A stretch of 64,000 nucleotides of DNA from the NCBI GenBank assembly GCA_035367155.1, contig DAOSJI010000002.1, positions 38,786 through 102,785 on the forward strand, written 5' to 3'. Position numbers and translations under genes: made by a program. The notes beneath the pieces were generated by a model. The model saw only the letters and a program-made list of their open reading frames with translations. It ran no database searches and was not told where the DNA came from. Shown in pieces: positions 51,211 to 60,799 of this stretch. Origin of the DNA: Bacilli bacterium. GTDB lineage: Bacteria > Bacillota_I > Bacilli_A > RFN20 > CAG-826. The first letter of the stretch is position 1; each line of letters opens with the position of its first letter.

Positions 51211-52647
51211 ATGAATATAAAATTTGAAACACAAATAAGTGAATTAAAACATAAGGTTTTGGTAAAGGTTGCAACTTTGGCTTATCAAGATAGACTTCTT
51301 GAAGGATACCGTTATATTCCTCAAGAAATAAAACCTGGACCAACTGCAACAATGCGCTGTTGCAATCATAAAGAACAAGCGATTCTGCGAGAAAGAGTAA
51401 AGTTAGCATGCGGTGGGGATAGTCGTAACCCCAACATTATGGAAGTAATTAAAATTGCTTGTGATGAATGTCCTTTAGGTGGCTATACAGTAACTAATGT
51501 TTGTCGAGGCTGTATTGCACACTATTGCCAAGAAGCATGTCCAAAAAAATGTATTTATATTGATCCTATTGACCATACTGCTAAAATCGACAAAAGCAAA
51601 TGTATTAACTGTGGATTATGTGCTAAAGCATGTCCTTATAATGCAATCATTAATTATAGAAGACCTTGTGAAACGGCATGTCACGTAGATGCAATTACAA
51701 TTGATCAATATGGAGCATGTGAAATTGATAATAACAAATGTGTCTCGTGTGGGCACTGTGCAGTAAAATGTCCTTTTGGAGCAATTATGGATAAATCATA
51801 TCTTTTAGATGCGATTGATATTTTAAAAGATAAAAAGAATGAAAAATATAACAAATATGCAATTCTTGCACCTGCTATTGCTGGTCAATTTAGGGGAGTG
51901 AGTTATGAACAAGTAGTTACGGGTATTAAAAAACTTGGTTTCACTCATGTTGTTGAAGCGGCTTTAGGTGCTGATTTAGTTGCTATTGCTGAATCTCAAG
52001 AATTAATTGAAAAAGGCTTTTTAACTTCAAGTTGTTGCCCCGCCTTTGTTGAATTAATTAAAAAACACTATCCAAGTGTAGCACCACACATTTCACATAA
52101 TTTAAGTCCTCAAGCAACGATTGCAAAGTATATAAAAACTAATGATAACACTGCAAAAATAGTATTTATTGGTCCGTGCATGGCAAAAAAAGCAGAAATT
52201 AAAAAGACAGAAGAATCAAAATGGACAGATGTGGTTTTAACATTTGAAGAACTTTTGGCTCTTTTTGTTAGCCGAGAGGTTGATTTAGATTCTCTAGAAG
52301 CAACCCCGTTAACTGATGCAAGTTATTATGGAAGGATTTTTGGTAGATCTGGAGGATTAACCGAAGCCGTTACTCAAGCGATAAAAGAACTTGAAGTCGC
52401 CGGCTTTGAGTTTAAACCCTTAGTGTGTGATGGAATAGTTAACTGTAGAAGTGCACTTAATAAAGCTAAAGGAGATACTAAAGATTTTAATTTTCTTGAA
52501 GGGATGGCCTGTGAAGGCGGATGTATTGGTGGACCAGCGGTAATTAGTAAAGGAATTCGAAATAAAATAGAAGTTGATAAATTCGCCAAAACAACTACAA
52601 AAGAAACTATTAAAAGTTCAATTAAGGATGTAGAAAAAAATGATTGA
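51211..52647 (+). CDS. [FeFe]-hydrogenase-like protein with N-terminal ferredoxin-type cluster domains
   Basis: H-cluster-type motifs SSCCPAF, GPCMAKKAE and EGMACEGGCIGGP. 4Fe-4S motifs CINCGLCAKACP and CVSCGHCAVKCP. Confidence 0.8.
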   Translation: MNIKFETQISELKHKVLVKVATLAYQDRLLEGYRYIPQEIKPGPTATMRCCNHKEQAILRERVKLACGGDSRNPNIMEVIKIACDECPLGGYTVTNVCRGCIAHYCQEACPKKCIYIDPIDHTAKIDKSKCINCGLCAKACPYNAIINYRRPCETACHVDAITIDQYGACEIDNNKCVSCGHCAVKCPFGAIMDKSYLLDAIDILKDKKNEKYNKYAILAPAIAGQFRGVSYEQVVTGIKKLGFTHVVEAALGADLVAIAESQELIEKGFLTSSCCPAFVELIKKHYPSVAPHISHNLSPQATIAKYIKTNDNTAKIVFIGPCMAKKAEIKKTEESKWTDVVLTFEELLALFVSREVDLDSLEATPLTDASYYGRIFGRSGGLTEAVTQAIKELEVAGFEFKPLVCDGIVNCRSALNKAKGDTKDFNFLEGMACEGGCIGGPAVISKGIRNKIEVDKFAKTTTKETIKSSIKDVEKND

Positions 52648-52990
52648 TAAAAAAATATATGATGAGGTTATCGCCTTTAGTAGGGATCGAGATTGGGAAC
52701 AATATCATACTGGAAAAGATTTAGCAGTTAGTCTTGTTTTGGAAGCTTCTGAATTACTTGAGGTATATCAATGGTCAGGAAGTGACCAATGGGAAAACAC
52801 CAAAAAAGAAAAAATAGAAGAGGAATTAGCAGATATTTTAATGTATGTAATTTTAATTGCAGATGCTTATAAACTTGATTTAAATGTAATTTTGAAAAAC
52901 AAATTGAGTACCAATAATAAGAAATACCCATTGGAAATGAGTAAAGGTAGCAAGGAAAAATATGATGAGCTCAAAAGAAAAAAAAGATAA
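52640..52990 (+). CDS. MazG-like nucleoside triphosphate pyrophosphohydrolase
   Basis: EASELLE and EELADILMYV metal-binding helices. 116 aa. Confidence 0.8.
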   Translation: MIDKKIYDEVIAFSRDRDWEQYHTGKDLAVSLVLEASELLEVYQWSGSDQWENTKKEKIEEELADILMYVILIADAYKLDLNVILKNKLSTNNKKYPLEMSKGSKEKYDELKRKKR

Positions 52991-53225
52991 AATATTAAAA
53001 ATAATAGCGACAATAGGTGGCGTTTTACTATTAGTAGCAGGTATGGTAATACTGGGGTATGGAATCATTAAGTATTTTGGTGCTTTGATGCATAATAGTG
53101 ATTTAGAAACTGGTCAACAAGCCATTGAGACAAGCATTTTACCTTTTATTATTAGTTCCCCATTACTCTTTGGTGGTTTTTTCTTAATAGTTTTAGGTGT
53201 TGGAAAGAAAAAAACAAAATTATGA
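52962..53225 (+). CDS. Small two-TM membrane protein
   Basis: 87 aa with two hydrophobic helices and lysine-rich ends. Overlaps both neighbours, suggesting translational coupling. Confidence 0.5.
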   Translation: MMSSKEKKDKILKIIATIGGVLLLVAGMVILGYGIIKYFGALMHNSDLETGQQAIETSILPFIISSPLLFGGFFLIVLGVGKKKTKL

Positions 53226-54115
53226 AAAAAAACAAAGGCCGTGTAAAACAAAAAAACGAAGAGTATCAAGTAAAAGAAACTTCGCAACTTTTTGATTTTT
53301 TAATGGAAAATCTTAAAGGAAGAAGTCGGAATAATATAAAAAGTCTTTTAACGAGAAAACAAATTTTAGTAAATGATATTGTAGTTTCGCAATACAATTT
53401 TGAATTGGTAAAGGGTGATGTAATAAAGGTAACACCATTTCGTAATACAGTAACGAACAAAATGAAATTACCTATCATCTACGAAGATGATATGTTAATT
53501 GTTATTAATAAACCCACTGGACTTCTTTCAATAGCAAGTGATAAAGAAAAAGAAGCTACGGCATATCGATATGTTAACGAATATCTAAGGCAAGAAAATC
53601 CTAATGCGAGAGCCTTTGTGTTGCATCGACTCGATAAAGAAACGTCTGGGATTTTGATGTTTTCTAAAACACCCAACTTAGTAAATGCATTGCACAAAAA
53701 CTGGAACCATTTCGTCACAAAACGAGCCTATTTTGTAGTGATAAAAGGAAAAATACCCCAAAATAGCGGAGTTATTAAATCCTATTTGCACCAAAGTAAA
53801 ACACAGCAAGTTTACTCTGGTGCTAAAACTAAAGACGCAAAATATTCTGAAACTCATTACGAGTTTTTAAGAGGAAATAATGAATTTTCACTTTATGATG
53901 TTAAATTACAAACGGGAAGAAAAAATCAAATAAGAGTACATTTTAGAGATTTAGGGTATCCAATTATTGGTGATGATAAATATAACGGAGAAACTACGAA
54001 AATTAAAAGACTAGGCCTTCATGCTTACGAGATAGTTTTTAAAAATCCAATTACTAAGAAAATAATGTCATTTAAAACCCCAATACCCAAAGAATTTAAT
54101 CTGCTTCTCAAGTAA
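53222..54115 (+). CDS. RluA-family pseudouridine synthase with an N-terminal S4-like domain
   Basis: Catalytic motif HRLDKETSGILMF. Confidence 0.9.
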   Translation: MKKNKGRVKQKNEEYQVKETSQLFDFLMENLKGRSRNNIKSLLTRKQILVNDIVVSQYNFELVKGDVIKVTPFRNTVTNKMKLPIIYEDDMLIVINKPTGLLSIASDKEKEATAYRYVNEYLRQENPNARAFVLHRLDKETSGILMFSKTPNLVNALHKNWNHFVTKRAYFVVIKGKIPQNSGVIKSYLHQSKTQQVYSGAKTKDAKYSETHYEFLRGNNEFSLYDVKLQTGRKNQIRVHFRDLGYPIIGDDKYNGETTKIKRLGLHAYEIVFKNPITKKIMSFKTPIPKEFNLLLK

Positions 54116-54130
54116 ATATTATTAGTATAT

Positions 54131-54166
54131 AAAAAAGTCGAAATATATGTATTTCGCTTTTTTGTT
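54131..54166 (+). terminator. Rho-independent terminator
   Basis: Stem cgaaata (54139-54145) / tatttcg (54150-54156) followed by a T-run. A TATAAT hexamer lies downstream, ahead of the next operon. Confidence 0.6.
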
Positions 54167-54197
54167 CTTTTTTCGTATAATATAAAGCGGTAGATTT

Positions 54198-55700
54198 ATG
54201 ATTAAGCAATTATTACAACATGTAAAAGATGCATTACTCTCTGTATTACCAGTCACACTGACGGTTATTTTATTACATTTTACAGGTCTTGTTCCGCTTG
54301 GAGACAATATAATTACTTTTGTAATTGGAGCCATTTTTTTAGTTGTAGGTTTAATTTTATTTAATATAGGTGTTAGTGAATCACTTTTAAAAGTTGGAGA
54401 AATGATTGGATCATCACTTGTAAAAGTTTCAAAATTTCCTTTATTAATATTAATTGTCTTTATTATGGGGTTTGTGATTACATCCGCCGAACCATCAGTA
54501 ATGCTTTTAGCGACACAAACCCCTATTAATAAATATGTTTTTGTTTTTGTTGTTGCAGGTGGCGTTGGATTATATCTCGTTTTAGCAGTTTTAAAAGTTA
54601 TTTTTAACAAACACTTTAATGCTTTTGCAATAACGACATATGTCTTAATCTTTGGCTGTGCAATACTTGTTGCACCAGAATTTTTACCTATGGCATTTGA
54701 TTCATCTGGAGTAGCCACAGGAGTAGTAACAGTTCCATTCATTATTGCGATTGGCACGGGTGTAGCAATGACTCTTTCAAAAAGAAAAGCACAAGAAGAT
54801 AGTTTCGGTTTTGTAGGATTTGCTATTCTTGGACCTATTTTATTTGTAATTATTATGGGAATTTTTAGTGATAAACCGACTTATTCTTTAAGCGAAGGCG
54901 GCGAAGTATTAACAATTACACAAATGATTTTAACCGCTATTAAACAATCGGCGATAGATAACGCATTAGTACTTGTACCCATATTAATCTTTTTTGTAAT
55001 TTATCAGGCATTTTATATTAAATTATCAAAAAAACAATTACTTAGAATTGGAATAGGGTTTATTTATGTATATGTTGGATTACTCCTATTTATTGCAGGA
55101 GCAAATATTGGTTATGTTCCAATTGGTAATCTTATTGGAGAAGTATTAGTTAATAAAAATAATTTAGCGATTATGCTAGCAATTATTGCTTTAATAGGTG
55201 GTTTAGCATGTTTAGCAGAACCAAGTGTTCATGTTTTAGGATCAAGAGTTGAGGAGATAAGTGATGGAACAATTAAGAAAACTACTCTTGTTTTGACGTT
55301 AGCAGGTGGTGTATGTATCTCAATGATGCTATCTGTAATACGTGTATATTTTGACTTTTCATTTATGTATTTTATCGTTCCAGGTTATTTTATTGCGGTC
55401 GCATTAACATTTATAGTTCCTCGTGTTTATACATCTATTGCTTTTGATGGTGGTGGTGCTGTTAGTAGTGCTCTTACTGCAAGTTTTCTCGCACCAATCG
55501 TAATGGGTGTTGCTATAGCAATTCCAGGGCGTAATTTAGTTTTAAACGGACTAGGAACAATAGGATTAATTTCGATGATGCCTTTAATAACTATTCAATT
55601 ATTAGGCTTTGGAGCAATGCTTAAAGAACGTGCTGCTATTCGTATTAGTAAGGCTAGACGAATTGAAGAATACGAAGCAGAAATTATCTATTTTAATTAA
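54198..55700 (+). CDS. Internally duplicated polytopic membrane protein (DUF1538-like)
   Basis: Two homologous halves. AEPSVMLLA matches AEPSVHVLG, and AFDSSGVATG matches AFDGGGAVSS. The family name is from recollection. Confidence 0.55.
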   Translation: MIKQLLQHVKDALLSVLPVTLTVILLHFTGLVPLGDNIITFVIGAIFLVVGLILFNIGVSESLLKVGEMIGSSLVKVSKFPLLILIVFIMGFVITSAEPSVMLLATQTPINKYVFVFVVAGGVGLYLVLAVLKVIFNKHFNAFAITTYVLIFGCAILVAPEFLPMAFDSSGVATGVVTVPFIIAIGTGVAMTLSKRKAQEDSFGFVGFAILGPILFVIIMGIFSDKPTYSLSEGGEVLTITQMILTAIKQSAIDNALVLVPILIFFVIYQAFYIKLSKKQLLRIGIGFIYVYVGLLLFIAGANIGYVPIGNLIGEVLVNKNNLAIMLAIIALIGGLACLAEPSVHVLGSRVEEISDGTIKKTTLVLTLAGGVCISMMLSVIRVYFDFSFMYFIVPGYFIAVALTFIVPRVYTSIAFDGGGAVSSALTASFLAPIVMGVAIAIPGRNLVLNGLGTIGLISMMPLITIQLLGFGAMLKERAAIRISKARRIEEYEAEIIYFN

Positions 55701-55712
55701 GGAGGCAACATA

Positions 55713-56129
55713 GTGAAAAACGCATTAACAAAACACGCTAAAACTACAGTACGAAAGCCTTTTAGTGAAACAAATGAAATTAAAAAGCTATCTTTACTAG
55801 TTACGATTGTTGATCGTGATGCCAGTGATGTTTTTGTTGATTATTTTCAAACACTAGAAAGTAACCTCCAAATCATTATTTTTGGTAAAGGAACAGCGAC
55901 AAGTGAACTAATTTCATTGCTTGGTTTAAGCGAACCCAACAAAGATATCTTATTAACTATTATTAAAGAAGAAAAAATAGATGAAGCATTTAATTATATA
56001 AAACGAAGATTTGAAATATCAAAAAAACATAAAGGTGTTGCCTTTAGTATCGGGCTTGAATCTATGATAGGTGTATCAATTTATAAATATTTATCAAATA
56101 ATGTTTTAAACAAACAAAAAGGAGCTTAA
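55713..56129 (+). CDS. PII-like signal-transduction protein paralog 1
   Basis: 138 aa with a beta-alpha-beta pattern, LLVTIVDRD...FGKGTATSE. The start is GTG. Confidence 0.5.
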   Translation: MKNALTKHAKTTVRKPFSETNEIKKLSLLVTIVDRDASDVFVDYFQTLESNLQIIIFGKGTATSELISLLGLSEPNKDILLTIIKEEKIDEAFNYIKRRFEISKKHKGVAFSIGLESMIGVSIYKYLSNNVLNKQKGA

Positions 56130-56130
56130 G

Positions 56131-56511
56131 ATGGACAAAAAAGAAACAAATTTAATTATTGTTATTATCAATTCAGGATTTGTAGATCTTGTTATGGATG
56201 CCGCAAAAGCAGCTGGAGCCGGTGGAGGAACGGTCCTTCACGGCAGAGGAACTGGAAACAAAGAAATTGAAAAACTTTTTGGTATTACAATTAGTCCAAA
56301 TAAAGAAATTGTCTTAATCGTAGTTCCTAATCAAATTAAAGATAAGGTTATGAAAGCTATTTATAATAATGCTGGCCTAGATACAGAAGGGCAAGGTATT
56401 ATCTTTTCACTACCGCTTGATCGAGTTGTAGGAGTAAATTTCAATCATTTTAACAAAAATGCTGAAAACAACAATACAACTGATGATACAAAAAATGGTA
56501 ACCAAGAGTAA
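56131..56511 (+). CDS. PII-like signal-transduction protein paralog 2
   Basis: LIIVIINSGFVDLVMDAAKAAGAGGGTVLHGRGTG is typical of the PII-like proteins that follow DUF1538 genes. Confidence 0.6.
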   Translation: MDKKETNLIIVIINSGFVDLVMDAAKAAGAGGGTVLHGRGTGNKEIEKLFGITISPNKEIVLIVVPNQIKDKVMKAIYNNAGLDTEGQGIIFSLPLDRVVGVNFNHFNKNAENNNTTDDTKNGNQE

Positions 56512-59500
56512 AAGAACAATCATTTTTAATTATCTTCATGTAACGCTATTAGCGCTTTTTTATCTTGTAACTTTGATGGTTGCTCCAAGAGGGCAATATG
56601 ATAAAGGAGTAGCGCCTTTACTTTGGTTTATATTCATTACAGTCATCCTTGTAAGTTTAATAACTATAAACATAATATTAATCATTAGAAAAAAACAAGA
56701 CAAAAAACGCATATTTGCAATTTTAACCACGTTATTGTCGCTTTTTCCTTTCTACCAATCATTGCGTAGACTTGCCAGTTTACTAAGTCCAGTAAATAGT
56801 TTATACACTGAATTTCCTGTTCTTGCAATTTTATTTATTTTAATTTTTCTTCTTTATTTAATATGTGCTGTAACATTTTTGATAAATCAATTAACCATAA
56901 TAGATAAAGAATATGAAACCGTAAAAGAAGAAAAATTAAACTTGCAAAAAAGATGGACTATTTTTCTTGAAAGATTTGGTAGAACTGAAAATCCTTTATA
57001 TTTTTATATAATTTCATTATTTATAATAGCGATTTTATTTTTCTCATCAAGTTTATTTAAAGAGTCTTTTACAATTCCTTTTGGTGGCGATTTTACTCAA
57101 CAACAGCTTCAATTTTATATTAATGGTTATGATGATTACTGGTCCTTTTTTAAGACAGGACAGTTTCCTTTATGGGACACAAATACTTTTCTTGGTGTAA
57201 ATAACATTGGATCAAATGCATTTTACTATGCACTAAATCCATTTTTTCTACCAATCTTAGTATTCCCTCGCTCCTTAGTTCCACAGGGGATCTCGGTACT
57301 AATGATTACAAAATTTGTTTTGGCCGCTTTATCTATGAGAGCTTATTTAAAATACATGGGAATAAAAGAAACTACAGCGAGACTTTTTGCATTAATGTAC
57401 GCATTTTGCGGGTGGAATGTCTATTATTTATGGTTTAACCACTTTATGGAAGTTACTGTAATGTTTCCTCTTGTATTTTTAGGAATTGAAAAAGTATTTA
57501 AAGAACGTCAACCATTTTTCTTAGCACTAAGCTTAGCAATAATGGGTTTAGCAAATTATTTCTTCTTAGTTACCACATGTATGGTCGGAGTTTTATATGC
57601 TGGATTTCGTTATATTCAACTATTTAGTAAGTTTCCCAATAATAGAGTTCGCCTTGAAGTCATCGGGATCGGGTTTTTAGGATTTTTATTTGGTATTCTT
57701 GGATCTGGCATTGCTTTTTTACCAGGATTAGATGTAGCAAGAAATAGTGATCGCGTTACAAATGCAACATATTTAGATAATCTTAAATCAACATTTAAAG
57801 CAAAAGATTGGAAAACACTTGTAGCATATTTAACTAAATGGGAAACACAAAATGAGTCTTTTGAATATAAAAAGTTTTATCCCCTCATTTCTTTTTTATT
57901 CCCAACTATATCAGATCGCAGTGTTACGTTACTGAATAGAAGTTCCTACGATAACACTATTTCTAGTTTATTTACTTTTACGCCTATAACACTTCTATTA
58001 ATTCCATCTTTGATTCATTCTTTTAAGAAAAGAAAGGCAAGTCCTTTTATAGCGCTAGGTTTGTTCCTTTTAGCTATTTTTACTCCTTTCGCGTATAACC
58101 TATTTCATGGTTTTACAAAAGAATATGGAAGGTGGCAGCTGTTCCCTGTGTTTTTACTTATTACTTATGTAGCGTCATCATATGAAGAAAGAAAAGAGTT
58201 TAAACGATGGTATTTTGATGTCTCATTTGTTGTAATTGCTTTACTTATGGGTATTACTTATTTATGGGCGTTTAATTATCAAAACAAGAATACATTTACA
58301 TTTTTATTTCAACGAGAATATGTGGCATATTATCAATTTGGGGTCCTTTTTGTCGTATATTTAACGTTTAGATATATGTATGAAAAGAAAGTAGTAAGTC
58401 CAATTTTATTTGCTCTAACAACAATTGAAGTGGTAATAATGGGTGTCTTGACACTTAATTTCCACGGGACGATATCATATCAAAATCATGTTTTCGGGGG
58501 TCAAATTAACTATAAACACGATGAAGAAGTTACTAGAAAAATTAAATCTTTAGATGGCTCCTATTATAGGGTTTATTCTACTAGTGCTAGAAAAGGAAGA
58601 GATAATCTCCCGATGGCTCTTGATTACAATGGTGTCACGACTTTTCACTCGTTGTATAATTTTGAATTAATGGACTTTAATTATTGGAGTAAGATTAACT
58701 ATAACTATTTAGGTTGGTCACTTGGTGTACACGAAAAAAGACCATTCTTGGATCAATTTCTAAATATAAAATATTATGTTATGAAACCAAGTGAAGCAAA
58801 TCCAACAATTGAAGAAAAAGACAATGTCATTTTACGCCCAAATGTTCCTCTAACACATATCTTATATGAAGAAATGTCTACTGAACATCGATTAGTATAT
58901 GGGAACGAAAATCATTTTAATACTGGTTTTGCAGTCGACAACATCATGTCATATGAACAATTTGATGGCGAAAAAATTGTCGATGTTGTGCGCAATTCAG
59001 GAAGAACAGGAATTATTAAAATTGAAGAATTATACTTAAAGTCTGCTATTCTTTCTTTTGATGATTTTAACGAAGTAAAAAAGAATCACCCTACTTTTAA
59101 TGAAATAGATTTTAAATATTATCAAATGAACGCTCATCAATATTCAAATAATTTAAGTAGCGATTTTGGTTTTAGTAAAACTATATATTATTGTAGTAAG
59201 GAATTTCCGATTACAAAACTTAATTCTAATGAATTGAATTTAAGATCTTGTACAGTCTTTAATGTTGGATCTAAACCACATGTAGGGATAGTTTTTGAAA
59301 GAAATAATGGCGAACCATTTTTATTTAACAGCGGATCTATAATTTTTCAATATCCAATAGCAGCAAAAGCCAACATTTATTTACTTGGTACTGATGGATC
59401 AGTTGTTACATATGATAATCACACATCTCCAAGTGGATCAACAACCTATAAAGTTTTACGTGGCTTTTCTGCAAGTAAAGCGATTAAACGGATAATTATT

Positions 59501-59935
59501 ATTCCGCAAGAAACATTCAAAGATTATTCGACCACGTATATTTTTGCTTATGATGAGTCAGTTCAAAATGAAATAATAGCGAATACAAAGCGATATCCAT
59601 TAGAAAACCTTAAATGGAAAAGAAACGAAATAACATTTACGACCAACTTTGAAGATGAAAAATTCGTTATTACAACAATTCCATATGACAAAGGGTGGCA
59701 TGCTGGCTATGTTAATAAAGTAACAAAAGAAAATAGTCATATTAAAGTGTATAAAACTCATGGTGGTTTTGTTGGATTTGTAGCACCAAAAGGTGACAAT
59801 CAATATTCTCTTGTTTTTGTTCCAGAATATTTAACAAGTGGTTTATTAGCTAGTTTCGGCGGGTTCTATTTTGCAATAGTCGGCTTAGTCTATCTTCGAT
59901 ATAAAAAGAAAAAGCAGCAAGTTAAAGCTGCTTGA
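56459..59935 (+). CDS. YfhO-family (GT-C-like) giant membrane protein with an extra N-terminal 4-TM module
   Basis: The FGGDFTQQQLQFY...PLWD region is typical of the YfhO start but occurs about 200 residues in. The real start is probably an internal Met (for example 56495), because the track start overlaps the upstream gene by 53 nt. Confidence 0.7.
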   Translation: MLKTTIQLMIQKMVTKSKRTIIFNYLHVTLLALFYLVTLMVAPRGQYDKGVAPLLWFIFITVILVSLITINIILIIRKKQDKKRIFAILTTLLSLFPFYQSLRRLASLLSPVNSLYTEFPVLAILFILIFLLYLICAVTFLINQLTIIDKEYETVKEEKLNLQKRWTIFLERFGRTENPLYFYIISLFIIAILFFSSSLFKESFTIPFGGDFTQQQLQFYINGYDDYWSFFKTGQFPLWDTNTFLGVNNIGSNAFYYALNPFFLPILVFPRSLVPQGISVLMITKFVLAALSMRAYLKYMGIKETTARLFALMYAFCGWNVYYLWFNHFMEVTVMFPLVFLGIEKVFKERQPFFLALSLAIMGLANYFFLVTTCMVGVLYAGFRYIQLFSKFPNNRVRLEVIGIGFLGFLFGILGSGIAFLPGLDVARNSDRVTNATYLDNLKSTFKAKDWKTLVAYLTKWETQNESFEYKKFYPLISFLFPTISDRSVTLLNRSSYDNTISSLFTFTPITLLLIPSLIHSFKKRKASPFIALGLFLLAIFTPFAYNLFHGFTKEYGRWQLFPVFLLITYVASSYEERKEFKRWYFDVSFVVIALLMGITYLWAFNYQNKNTFTFLFQREYVAYYQFGVLFVVYLTFRYMYEKKVVSPILFALTTIEVVIMGVLTLNFHGTISYQNHVFGGQINYKHDEEVTRKIKSLDGSYYRVYSTSARKGRDNLPMALDYNGVTTFHSLYNFELMDFNYWSKINYNYLGWSLGVHEKRPFLDQFLNIKYYVMKPSEANPTIEEKDNVILRPNVPLTHILYEEMSTEHRLVYGNENHFNTGFAVDNIMSYEQFDGEKIVDVVRNSGRTGIIKIEELYLKSAILSFDDFNEVKKNHPTFNEIDFKYYQMNAHQYSNNLSSDFGFSKTIYYCSKEFPITKLNSNELNLRSCTVFNVGSKPHVGIVFERNNGEPFLFNSGSIIFQYPIAAKANIYLLGTDGSVVTYDNHTSPSGSTTYKVLRGFSASKAIKRIIIIPQETFKDYSTTYIFAYDESVQNEIIANTKRYPLENLKWKRNEITFTTNFEDEKFVITTIPYDKGWHAGYVNKVTKENSHIKVYKTHGGFVGFVAPKGDNQYSLVFVPEYLTSGLLASFGGFYFAIVGLVYLRYKKKKQQVKAA

Positions 59936-59953
59936 TTAAAACGATATTAAAAA

Positions 59954-60799
59954 TTAATTATCAGTCAAAAATGCACGATATAGTGCGTTTTTGCTAACGT
60001 TATTTAGGAGACTTACAATTTTACAAGCCTCTTTTAATGAATAGTTTTCTTTTAGAAGAAGGGAGACTTGTTTTTTTGCATCTTCGAATTTTTTATCTAT
60101 ATTTGAACTTGTATTTCCTTCAACTACAATTACAATTTCTCCTTTTATAGATGTATAGTCAAAAGTTAAAAATTCTTCTAATGTCCCGTATAAATATTCT
60201 TCGTTTATTTTCGTTAATTCTCTAGCCAATGTAACTTTTCTATTACCAAGGATATTATATAAATAATTCATTGTTCTTTGTATTCTATGAGGAGATTCAT
60301 AAAAGATTAATGATTCTTTTCTTTCTCTAAGGAGACACTCCTCTTCAATTGATAAATTTAATTTTGAAGGTAAAAATCCATGAAAATAAAAAGAAGAAGT
60401 CGAGATTCCACTTCCAATAAGTGCTGGTAAAAGAGCACTAGGCCCATTAACTACACTAATATGTATGTCATTATTCAATAATTCGTTTACTAATATTGCT
60501 CCTGGATCACTAATAAGCGGATAACCTGCATCAGAAACATAAGCACCAGACAGCCCTTTTTTAATTTGATTAATTATTTCTAAAGCTTTTTCTTTCTCAT
60601 TATGCTCAAAAAGACTAATTAAAGGTTTTGAAATTTTATAATGAGAAAGAAGAACATTAGTTACACGAGTGTCTTCGCAAGCAATAAAATCTACGTTATT
60701 TAAAATTTCGATTGCCCGATTAGAAAATTCGCTTAAGTTTCCTATTGGAGTAGCAACAAAATAAAAAGGTATCTTTGTGAAAGATTTATTCCTCTTCAT
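59954..60799 (-). CDS. rsmI: 16S rRNA (cytidine1402-2'-O)-methyltransferase
   Basis: FYFVATPIGNLSEFSNRAIEILNNVDFIACEDTRVT. Confidence 0.93.
   Translation of the reverse strand: MKRNKSFTKIPFYFVATPIGNLSEFSNRAIEILNNVDFIACEDTRVTNVLLSHYKISKPLISLFEHNEKEKALEIINQIKKGLSGAYVSDAGYPLISDPGAILVNELLNNDIHISVVNGPSALLPALIGSGISTSSFYFHGFLPSKLNLSIEEECLLRERKESLIFYESPHRIQRTMNYLYNILGNRKVTLARELTKINEEYLYGTLEEFLTFDYTSIKGEIVIVVEGNTSSNIDKKFEDAKKQVSLLLKENYSLKEACKIVSLLNNVSKNALYRAFLTDN

Follow-up and report, generated by a model that had tools for sequence, protein, structure and literature searches.

To our knowledge, few signal transducers are as widespread as the PII proteins, and only their partnerships with transporters of ammonium (GlnK with AmtB) and of bicarbonate (SbtB with SbtA) are understood mechanistically. 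Among membrane proteins of the DUF1538 family, UmpAB of Halomonas zhaodongensis has been described as an antiporter of Na+(Li+,K+) and H+ that works as a heterodimer (PMC5484666). We examined a locus in a 64,000-nt stretch of DNA from a Bacilli bacterium (assembly GCA_035367155.1, contig DAOSJI010000002.1, positions 38,786 to 102,785 of the forward strand; hereafter the window, to which all coordinates refer), at which a gene for a fused DUF1538 transporter is followed by two genes for PII-type proteins, PII-A and PII-B. The assembly to which the window belongs is ~0.9 Mb in size and 87% complete. We propose, with somewhat more confidence than doubt, that this three-gene module is a PII-gated DUF1538 cation/proton transporter. 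The module is common, yet the functional literature that we found is limited to UmpAB on the transporter side, with none on the PII partners, and we found no paper that describes a pairing of DUF1538 with PII proteins. The module consists of the following elements.

54198-55700, + strand: DUF1538 transporter gene, 500 aa, two DUF1538 repeats in one chain, a fused form of the UmpA/UmpB type
55701-55712, + strand: 12-nt spacer between the TAA stop of the transporter gene and the GTG start of the PII-A gene, Shine-Dalgarno sequence GGAGG at 55701-55705
55713-56129, + strand: PII-A gene, 138 aa, GTG start, divergent PII-like protein
56131-56511, + strand: PII-B gene, 126 aa, PII family

The first-pass annotation of this stretch, made from the letters alone, had described an internally duplicated membrane protein followed by two small proteins at spacings of 12 and 1 nt. 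Both spacings are confirmed, and each of the two downstream genes is preceded by a Shine-Dalgarno sequence, GGAGG for PII-A and AGGAG (56120-56124) for PII-B. The short spacings, with GGAGG adjoining the transporter stop codon, indicate that translation of the three genes is probably coupled.

The membrane protein is a member of the DUF1538 family, as the annotation had supposed: in a profile search, it matches PF07556 (DUF1538) with an E value of 2.8e-106 and 353.9 bits, well above the gathering cut-off of 22.6. The match falls into two stretches, the best of which (residues 262-471) spans profile positions 1-210 of 211. Indeed, the two halves of the protein are homologous to each other, since residues 43-221 align by BLASTP with residues 286-470 (28% identity over 185 residues, E 6e-20). 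We find both motif pairs on which the duplication had originally been recognized: AEPSVMLLA (residue 97) pairs with AEPSVHVLG (residue 340), and AFDSSGVATGVVTVPF (residue 166) with AFDGGGAVSSALTASF (residue 415).

The two small proteins are paralogues, and both have the PII fold. PII-A and PII-B are 23% identical over 107 residues (E 1e-12), and a profile-profile comparison (hhalign) relates them with a probability of 98.3% and an E value of 1.4e-14. PII-B matches the P-II family PF00543 (E 1.3e-9; score 38.7 bits, cut-off 25), as do all 32 of the PII-B orthologues. Window PII-A has no Pfam match, and PF00543 is matched weakly by 15 of 35 PII-A orthologues. We modelled the proteins with AlphaFold2 (AF2) in two chains, the window transporter with PII-A as an artificial read-through in which the transporter stop codon was read as Gly, and the transporter of a related locus (L065) read through into its natural A-B fusion. 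The mean predicted local distance difference test scores were 90.8 for the window chain (~95 over its membrane part) and 89.2 for the L065 chain. In the window model, PII-A begins with a disordered basic N-terminal tail of ~25 residues, which is followed by a beta-alpha-beta-beta-alpha-beta core, and the A and B domains of the L065 model have this same core. A Foldseek search with both models returned GlnK, PII, CPII, SbtB and PstA at a probability of 1.0 and template modelling (TM) scores of 0.55-0.77. The values for window PII-A against GlnK1, CPII, PstA and SbtB were 0.55-0.70, and the canonical PII matches of the L065 domains were at ~0.73. By sequence, the nearest solved relatives of PII-B are Methanocaldococcus jannaschii GlnK1 and 9p1x_H, and the 9p1x chain is the best match in the Protein Data Bank (PDB) for the PII-A and PII-B profiles alike. 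The lack of a PII-like fold in the small proteins would have spoken against the first-pass annotation; the fold is found in both modelled domains. In the models, both PII domains have a long T-loop between beta2 and beta3, and the FGKGTATSE and HGRGTGNKE motifs noted at the outset are present, each at the base of this loop. Orthologue alignments delimit the two T-loops.

55884-55943, + strand: conserved T-loop of PII-A, residues 58-77, G-x-G-T-A...L-G-L...K
56242-56304, + strand: T-loop of PII-B, residues 38-58

DUF1538 is found in 46 of 60 genomes of the family to which the window belongs, and each of these 46 has a PF00543 match within ~1.3 kb downstream on the same strand; all eight genomes in which no P-II match is found also lack DUF1538. 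This co-occurrence (46/46) leads us to reject chance adjacency of the three genes. The gene order is constant in a sample of 80 loci with a fused DUF1538 gene, in which A is followed by B in 70 loci, as two genes in 44 and as a single A-B fusion of 222-266 aa in 26, and never in the opposite order. Natural A-B fusions occur in cultured relatives such as Mediterraneibacter glycyrrhizinilyticus (L055), Diplocloster modestus (L068), Aequitasia blattaphilus (L072) and Lactonifactor longoviformis (P0068). The remaining loci are partial in seven cases (one PII-type open reading frame (ORF), several at a contig end) and have neither gene in three. Of 20 further loci drawn from a sample of the phylum, 19 have the pair or the A-B fusion. 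The module is present in 67 of the 299 genomes of the phylum sample, whereas DUF1538 is found in none of 14 control model genomes. Searches with the PII-A profile yielded 2,820 representative clusters (50% identity), of which 1,529 have E values ≤1e-10. A further link is a natural fusion of both DUF1538 repeats with PII-A (P0111, L105:3001-4965, 654 aa). Two Logan assemblies contain it in identical form, and a PII-B gene of its own begins 1 nt after it. Thus, the originally proposed pairing of transporter and PII proteins is backed by gene order, by fusions and by the phylogenetic profile. Tallies of Pfam families in the next genes (62 loci downstream, 63 upstream) reveal no conserved partner. 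Since conservation stops at the flanks, we take the three genes by themselves as the unit.

DUF1538 also occurs as split pairs of genes, and in three of these loci (L095, L101 and L104) the split is genuine and PII genes are present; a fourth candidate, L103, was rejected because its gene is interrupted by a run of N. The split pair of L095 has two PII genes, while L101, L102 and L104 have one PII gene and a Usp protein, located behind a P-type ATPase. The order in L101 (490-6168) and in L102 is P2-type cation ATPase, DUF1538 (231 aa), DUF1538 (251 aa), B-like P-II (105 aa) and Usp (300 aa). The sole PII protein of the split operons is B-like (91-93 bits versus 29-35), and because of this, B looks like the generic DUF1538 partner and A like a derived paralogue, as far as profile scores can tell.

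Several genomes and loci depart from the common arrangement in other ways. Four genomes of the family sample (G309, G340, G027 and G313) have a weak PII-like match in ORFs of ~116-126 aa without DUF1538, which may be orphan PII-like genes or reflect assembly gaps. In three others (G329, G314 and G326), strong P-II matches (E ~1e-24) lie inside frames of 572-580 aa, which could encode PII fused to a larger protein, for example an ammonium transporter. Two fused DUF1538 copies are found in each of G315, G335 and G008, and in G315 each copy adjoins its own PII match. In one locus, a fluoride riboswitch (L087:653-724, - strand, 46.2 bits) directly follows the A-B fusion and presumably controls the next gene rather than the module.

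The conserved PII pair differs from canonical PII proteins at the ligand pocket. Canonical PII binds Mg-ATP and 2-oxoglutarate through Q39, K58, G87-D88-G89-K90, R101 and R103. PII-B retains the canonical K58, G87, G89 and F92, but not Q39, D88, K90, R101 or R103, which are replaced by K (at 39, by alignment), Q88, I90 and, at both arginine positions, V/G. The B-loop of PII-A reads G-K-G-V-A-F, and the pair lacks the Y51 uridylylation site. Because most of the residues for binding are absent, GlnB-like sensing of Mg-ATP and 2-oxoglutarate by the pair is unlikely, judging from these alignments. Adenine nucleotides bound without a triphosphate clamp and cyclic di-AMP (c-di-AMP), for which the genome encodes a cyclase, are candidates. 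We searched the genome, at its 87% completeness, for other components of a PII system and found no second PF00543 match and no AmtB (PF00909); therefore, the PII pair is without a classical target.

The strict co-occurrence and the gene fusions, together with the loss of Q39, K90, R101 and R103, would also be expected if PII-A and PII-B were not regulators at all, but obligate structural subunits that permanently cap the transporter on its cytoplasmic side and are needed for it to fold, oligomerise or funnel ions. A model for such a role is provided by PII-like trimers of the CutA type, which may bind metals. We consider this quite improbable, however, since conservation extends to the base of the T-loop, to K58 and to the B-loop (G87-x-G89), as a ligand cleft would lead one to expect, and the characterised PII-transporter pairs are all reversible. 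Moreover, UmpAB was active in Escherichia coli from a clone ending at umpB, that is, without a cognate PII protein (PMC5484666). That paper never mentions PII or P-II proteins, because the clone ended at umpB.

The predicted architecture of the membrane protein bears on what the module does. We combined the AF2 helices with counts of Lys plus Arg in the loops of 12 diverse homologues. Basic and non-basic loops alternate along the chain, both termini are basic, and loops at equivalent positions of the two repeats are oppositely biased (0.1 for L1-2 versus 3.9 for L1'-2', and 2.9 for L2-3 versus 0.8 for L2'-3'). The transporter is thus predicted to be an inverted repeat of 7+7 transmembrane helices with cytoplasmic N- and C-termini, which sharpens the earlier description of a pseudo-symmetric transporter. 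The opposite bias in equivalent loops would also place split pairs of the UmpA/UmpB type antiparallel in the membrane. According to the models and the alignment, each repeat has two broken helices, one with the E-P of the AEP motif and one with the D of the FDxGG motif, and these coincide with the most conserved positions.

54486-54500, + strand: AEPSV motif of repeat 1 with invariant E98-P99, located where helix 80-96 breaks off before helix 99-107
54696-54710, + strand: FDSSG motif of repeat 1 with invariant D168, located where helix 162-172 breaks off before helix 178-193
55215-55229, + strand: AEPSV motif of repeat 2, E341-P342 invariant
55443-55457, + strand: FDGGG motif of repeat 2, D417 invariant

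The four carboxylates (E98, D168, E341 and D417) are invariant across the homologue alignment and are kept in the distant split relatives, while R382 is the sole invariant base embedded in the membrane. Cation-coupled carriers typically have buried carboxylates at helix breaks.

A sequence search of the PDB with the membrane protein gave no match, and a fold search of the PDB with the membrane parts of the two models returned at best MATE, ClC and EfpA, with probabilities of 0.13-0.47 and TM scores ≤0.18. The modelled DUF1538 fold is therefore without a counterpart among solved structures. This, and the fact that PII proteins often have multiple targets, would fit a membrane protein that is a sensor or anchor rather than a transporter, with the PII-like pair relaying its state to other cytoplasmic targets. 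We think it very improbable that the protein acts in this way, since the inverted repeat, the broken helices and the buried carboxylates are typical of ion-coupled carriers, no conserved third partner is found nearby, and UmpAB transports (PMC5484666).

With respect to substrate, the nearest NCBIfam models of the window transporter are those of UmpA and UmpB (NF041627/NF041628), and its scores are far below the equivalog cut-offs of both (161.5 bits versus 490 and 137.2 versus 500). On these scores, the window transporter is a distant UmpAB relative and no equivalog, and because of the distance from the cut-offs, a cation/H+ substrate is for this protein a putative assignment. The first-pass annotation had considered the substrate uncharacterised and had held that assignment to a characterised transporter family of known substrate would count against it. 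That condition applies in part, since UmpAB is a characterised member of the family, but the window protein lies below the equivalog cut-offs. Additional support for a role of DUF1538 in cation and pH homeostasis is correlative: a machine-learning study ranks it within the 20 Pfam families that best predict optimal growth pH, together with components of Mrp, Trk and Kdp (PMC13255231).

Several observations weigh against a cation/proton transporter under PII control. In addition to the distance from UmpAB, the activity of UmpAB itself rests on complementation of E. coli KNabc and vesicle assays from one laboratory (PMC5484666), and fused DUF1538 members, the window protein included, are known only as sequences and models. 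The genome already has one CPA-type Na+/H+ exchanger and one TrkH, so the module fills no obvious gap. The PII pocket departs from the canonical one by the absence of Q39, K90, R101 and R103, and ligand binding is putative. Finally, neither RNA nor neighbours point to a substrate: Rfam searches found no riboswitch or leader RNA in 52000-60500 of the window (no match at E ≤1) or upstream of the module in 33 related loci, and the flanks of the 62 and 63 loci tallied above have no conserved neighbour.

The main rival retains both the architecture and the PII gating but assigns a different substrate, for example ammonium, a divalent cation, an anion such as bicarbonate, or some small metabolite. 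On this view, UmpAB would move alkali cations only as a side activity or as a peculiarity of its subfamily. The distance of the window transporter from UmpAB, the exchanger and TrkH already in the genome, the P2-type cation ATPase that adjoins split relatives and the lack of a solved fold analogue to constrain the substrate are all compatible with this, and the known PII-transporter pairs carry NH4+ and HCO3-, not Na+ (bioRxiv 10.1101/2023.08.10.552651). We nevertheless regard it as unlikely, though it has to be taken seriously, since four invariant membrane carboxylates, with no invariant membrane base but R382, favour a cation, cation/H+ antiport by UmpAB is the sole experimental datum for the family (PMC5484666), and the correlation with pH optimum places DUF1538 among cation systems (PMC13255231).

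Our preferred explanation, a PII-gated cation/proton transporter, starts from what is directly established here, namely family membership, internal duplication, the PII fold, strict co-occurrence and gene fusions; the topology, physical binding of PII to the transporter, the substrate and the ligand are what we infer. The locus would be an operon of three genes, complete in itself, for a secondary transporter under regulation. Its 500-aa product would be the single-chain form of the two-subunit DUF1538/UmpAB transporter, with fourteen helices in two antiparallel repeats of seven, in which the invariant Glu (AEP) and Asp (FDxGG) at the broken helices of both repeats may form an intramembrane ion site. 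By the example of UmpAB, its most likely activity would be exchange of a monovalent cation (Na+/K+/Li+) for H+. PII-A and PII-B, made in a fixed order and presumably in equal amounts, may assemble on the cytoplasmic face of the transporter, where their conserved T-loops would open or plug it upon a small-ligand signal. We considered and rejected a version in which two-fold symmetry has A binding repeat 1 and B binding repeat 2, since antiparallel repeats leave the cytoplasmic face without two-fold symmetry.

The boundaries of the operon in the window are marked by the following features.

54129-54173 (stem-loop 54129-54165), + strand: A/U-rich hairpin with U-run, likely intrinsic terminator, from RNA folding
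54176-54181, + strand: TATAAT, candidate -10 box, 17 nt 5' of the transporter start codon, read from the sequence
56459-59935, + strand: YfhO-like gene, membrane protein of 1158 aa, PF09586 E 1.4e-61

The first-pass annotation had given the module its own terminator/promoter boundary upstream. In agreement with this, the hairpin (54129-54165) has a folding free energy of -12.1 kcal/mol and a z-score of -4.56, and none of 200 shuffled sequences is equally stable; it is likely an intrinsic terminator that ends an upstream operon of the rluA type. The TATAAT element also fits, but a consensus scan, which requires at least three G-C pairs in a terminator stem, called neither a terminator hairpin nor a TATAAT promoter upstream of the transporter. 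The candidate promoter has a poor -35 (TTCGCT) and the transporter start lacks a strong Shine-Dalgarno sequence, which would make the leader very short. An antisense ORF of 211 aa (54122-54757, - strand) overlaps the transporter gene; it is unsupported and most likely a by-product of composition.

At the downstream end, the YfhO-like ORF starts within the last part of PII-B; it has three candidate ATG codons (56459, 56483 and 56495), which give overlaps of 17-53 nt. The reported run-on of the module into this gene is real in the window and specific to its lineage: of 62 loci, just 3 have YfhO after the module, namely the window, L024 and L032, and RluA is found in 4 of 63 upstream flanks, both reflecting local synteny of close relatives only. 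Therefore, the YfhO-like gene, although probably co-transcribed in the window, lies outside the conserved module. The YfhO-like genes of L024 and L032 encode homologues at 33-34% identity, and the Pfam YfhO match of the window protein starts only at about residue 450 of 1158.

In a wider sense, and with rather more doubt than confidence, we suggest that DUF1538 with its dedicated PII proteins may join AmtB-GlnK and SbtA-SbtB as a third pairing of a transporter with PII, likewise old and widely distributed, which would place cation/pH homeostasis under PII-type control, with a transporter fold new to solved structures and a hetero-oligomeric A/B cap in the fused clade. If this is true, NifI1,2 would have in the A/B cap its first counterpart as a heteromeric PII complex, and retention of the module in host-associated genomes of ~1 Mb without canonical PII or AmtB would mark it as a core switch that works independently of them. 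Working out the substrate, ligand and assembly would add a new class of regulated ion transporter, explain why reduced gut-associated genomes keep this gene set, and tell whether NifI1,2 is the only heteromeric PII complex.

The module resembles several known systems and is identical to none. It shares with UmpAB the Pfam family, the presence of two DUF1538 units together (as the UmpA-UmpB heterodimer there and as two repeats here) and the AEP and [FY]D-x-G-G motifs, which are kept across the split relatives examined; it differs in that the units are fused in 500 aa and score far below the equivalog cut-offs. PstA/DarA, the c-di-AMP-binding protein of Firmicutes, has the PII fold and is among the fold matches (4d3h), and the genome of the window makes c-di-AMP. 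In Firmicutes, c-di-AMP controls K+ and osmolyte transporters. However, in PstA the T-loop is short and the B-loop long (PMC6516651), while in PII-A and PII-B it is the T-loop that is long and the B-loop that is short, as in canonical PII, and for this reason they are not of the PstA type. Literature on PII-like proteins in Borrelia and in methanogens proved unrelated.

In NifI1,2, as here, two diverged PII paralogues are always side by side, and the 9p1x chain that is the best PDB match of both profiles comes from an entry cited in the literature on that complex. However, NifI1,2 has nitrogenase rather than a membrane protein as its target and binds ADP and 2-oxoglutarate, and the 1:1 A-B fusion found here does not fit a 2:1 trimer. 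From the sequences compared, the fixed gene order and the A-B fusions suggest that A and B may form a hetero-oligomer. As in GlnK-AmtB and SbtB-SbtA, a small gene for a protein of the PII fold adjoins a transporter gene, the T-loop is long, and the fold matches GlnK1, SbtB and CPII. Unlike these systems, the window has another transporter family and two paralogous PII proteins instead of one, which lack Q39, K90, R101, R103 and Y51, in a genome without AmtB, and a complex is putative. If the proposal holds, control of transport by PII proteins, known in kind, extends here to a new transporter family and to paired PII paralogues.

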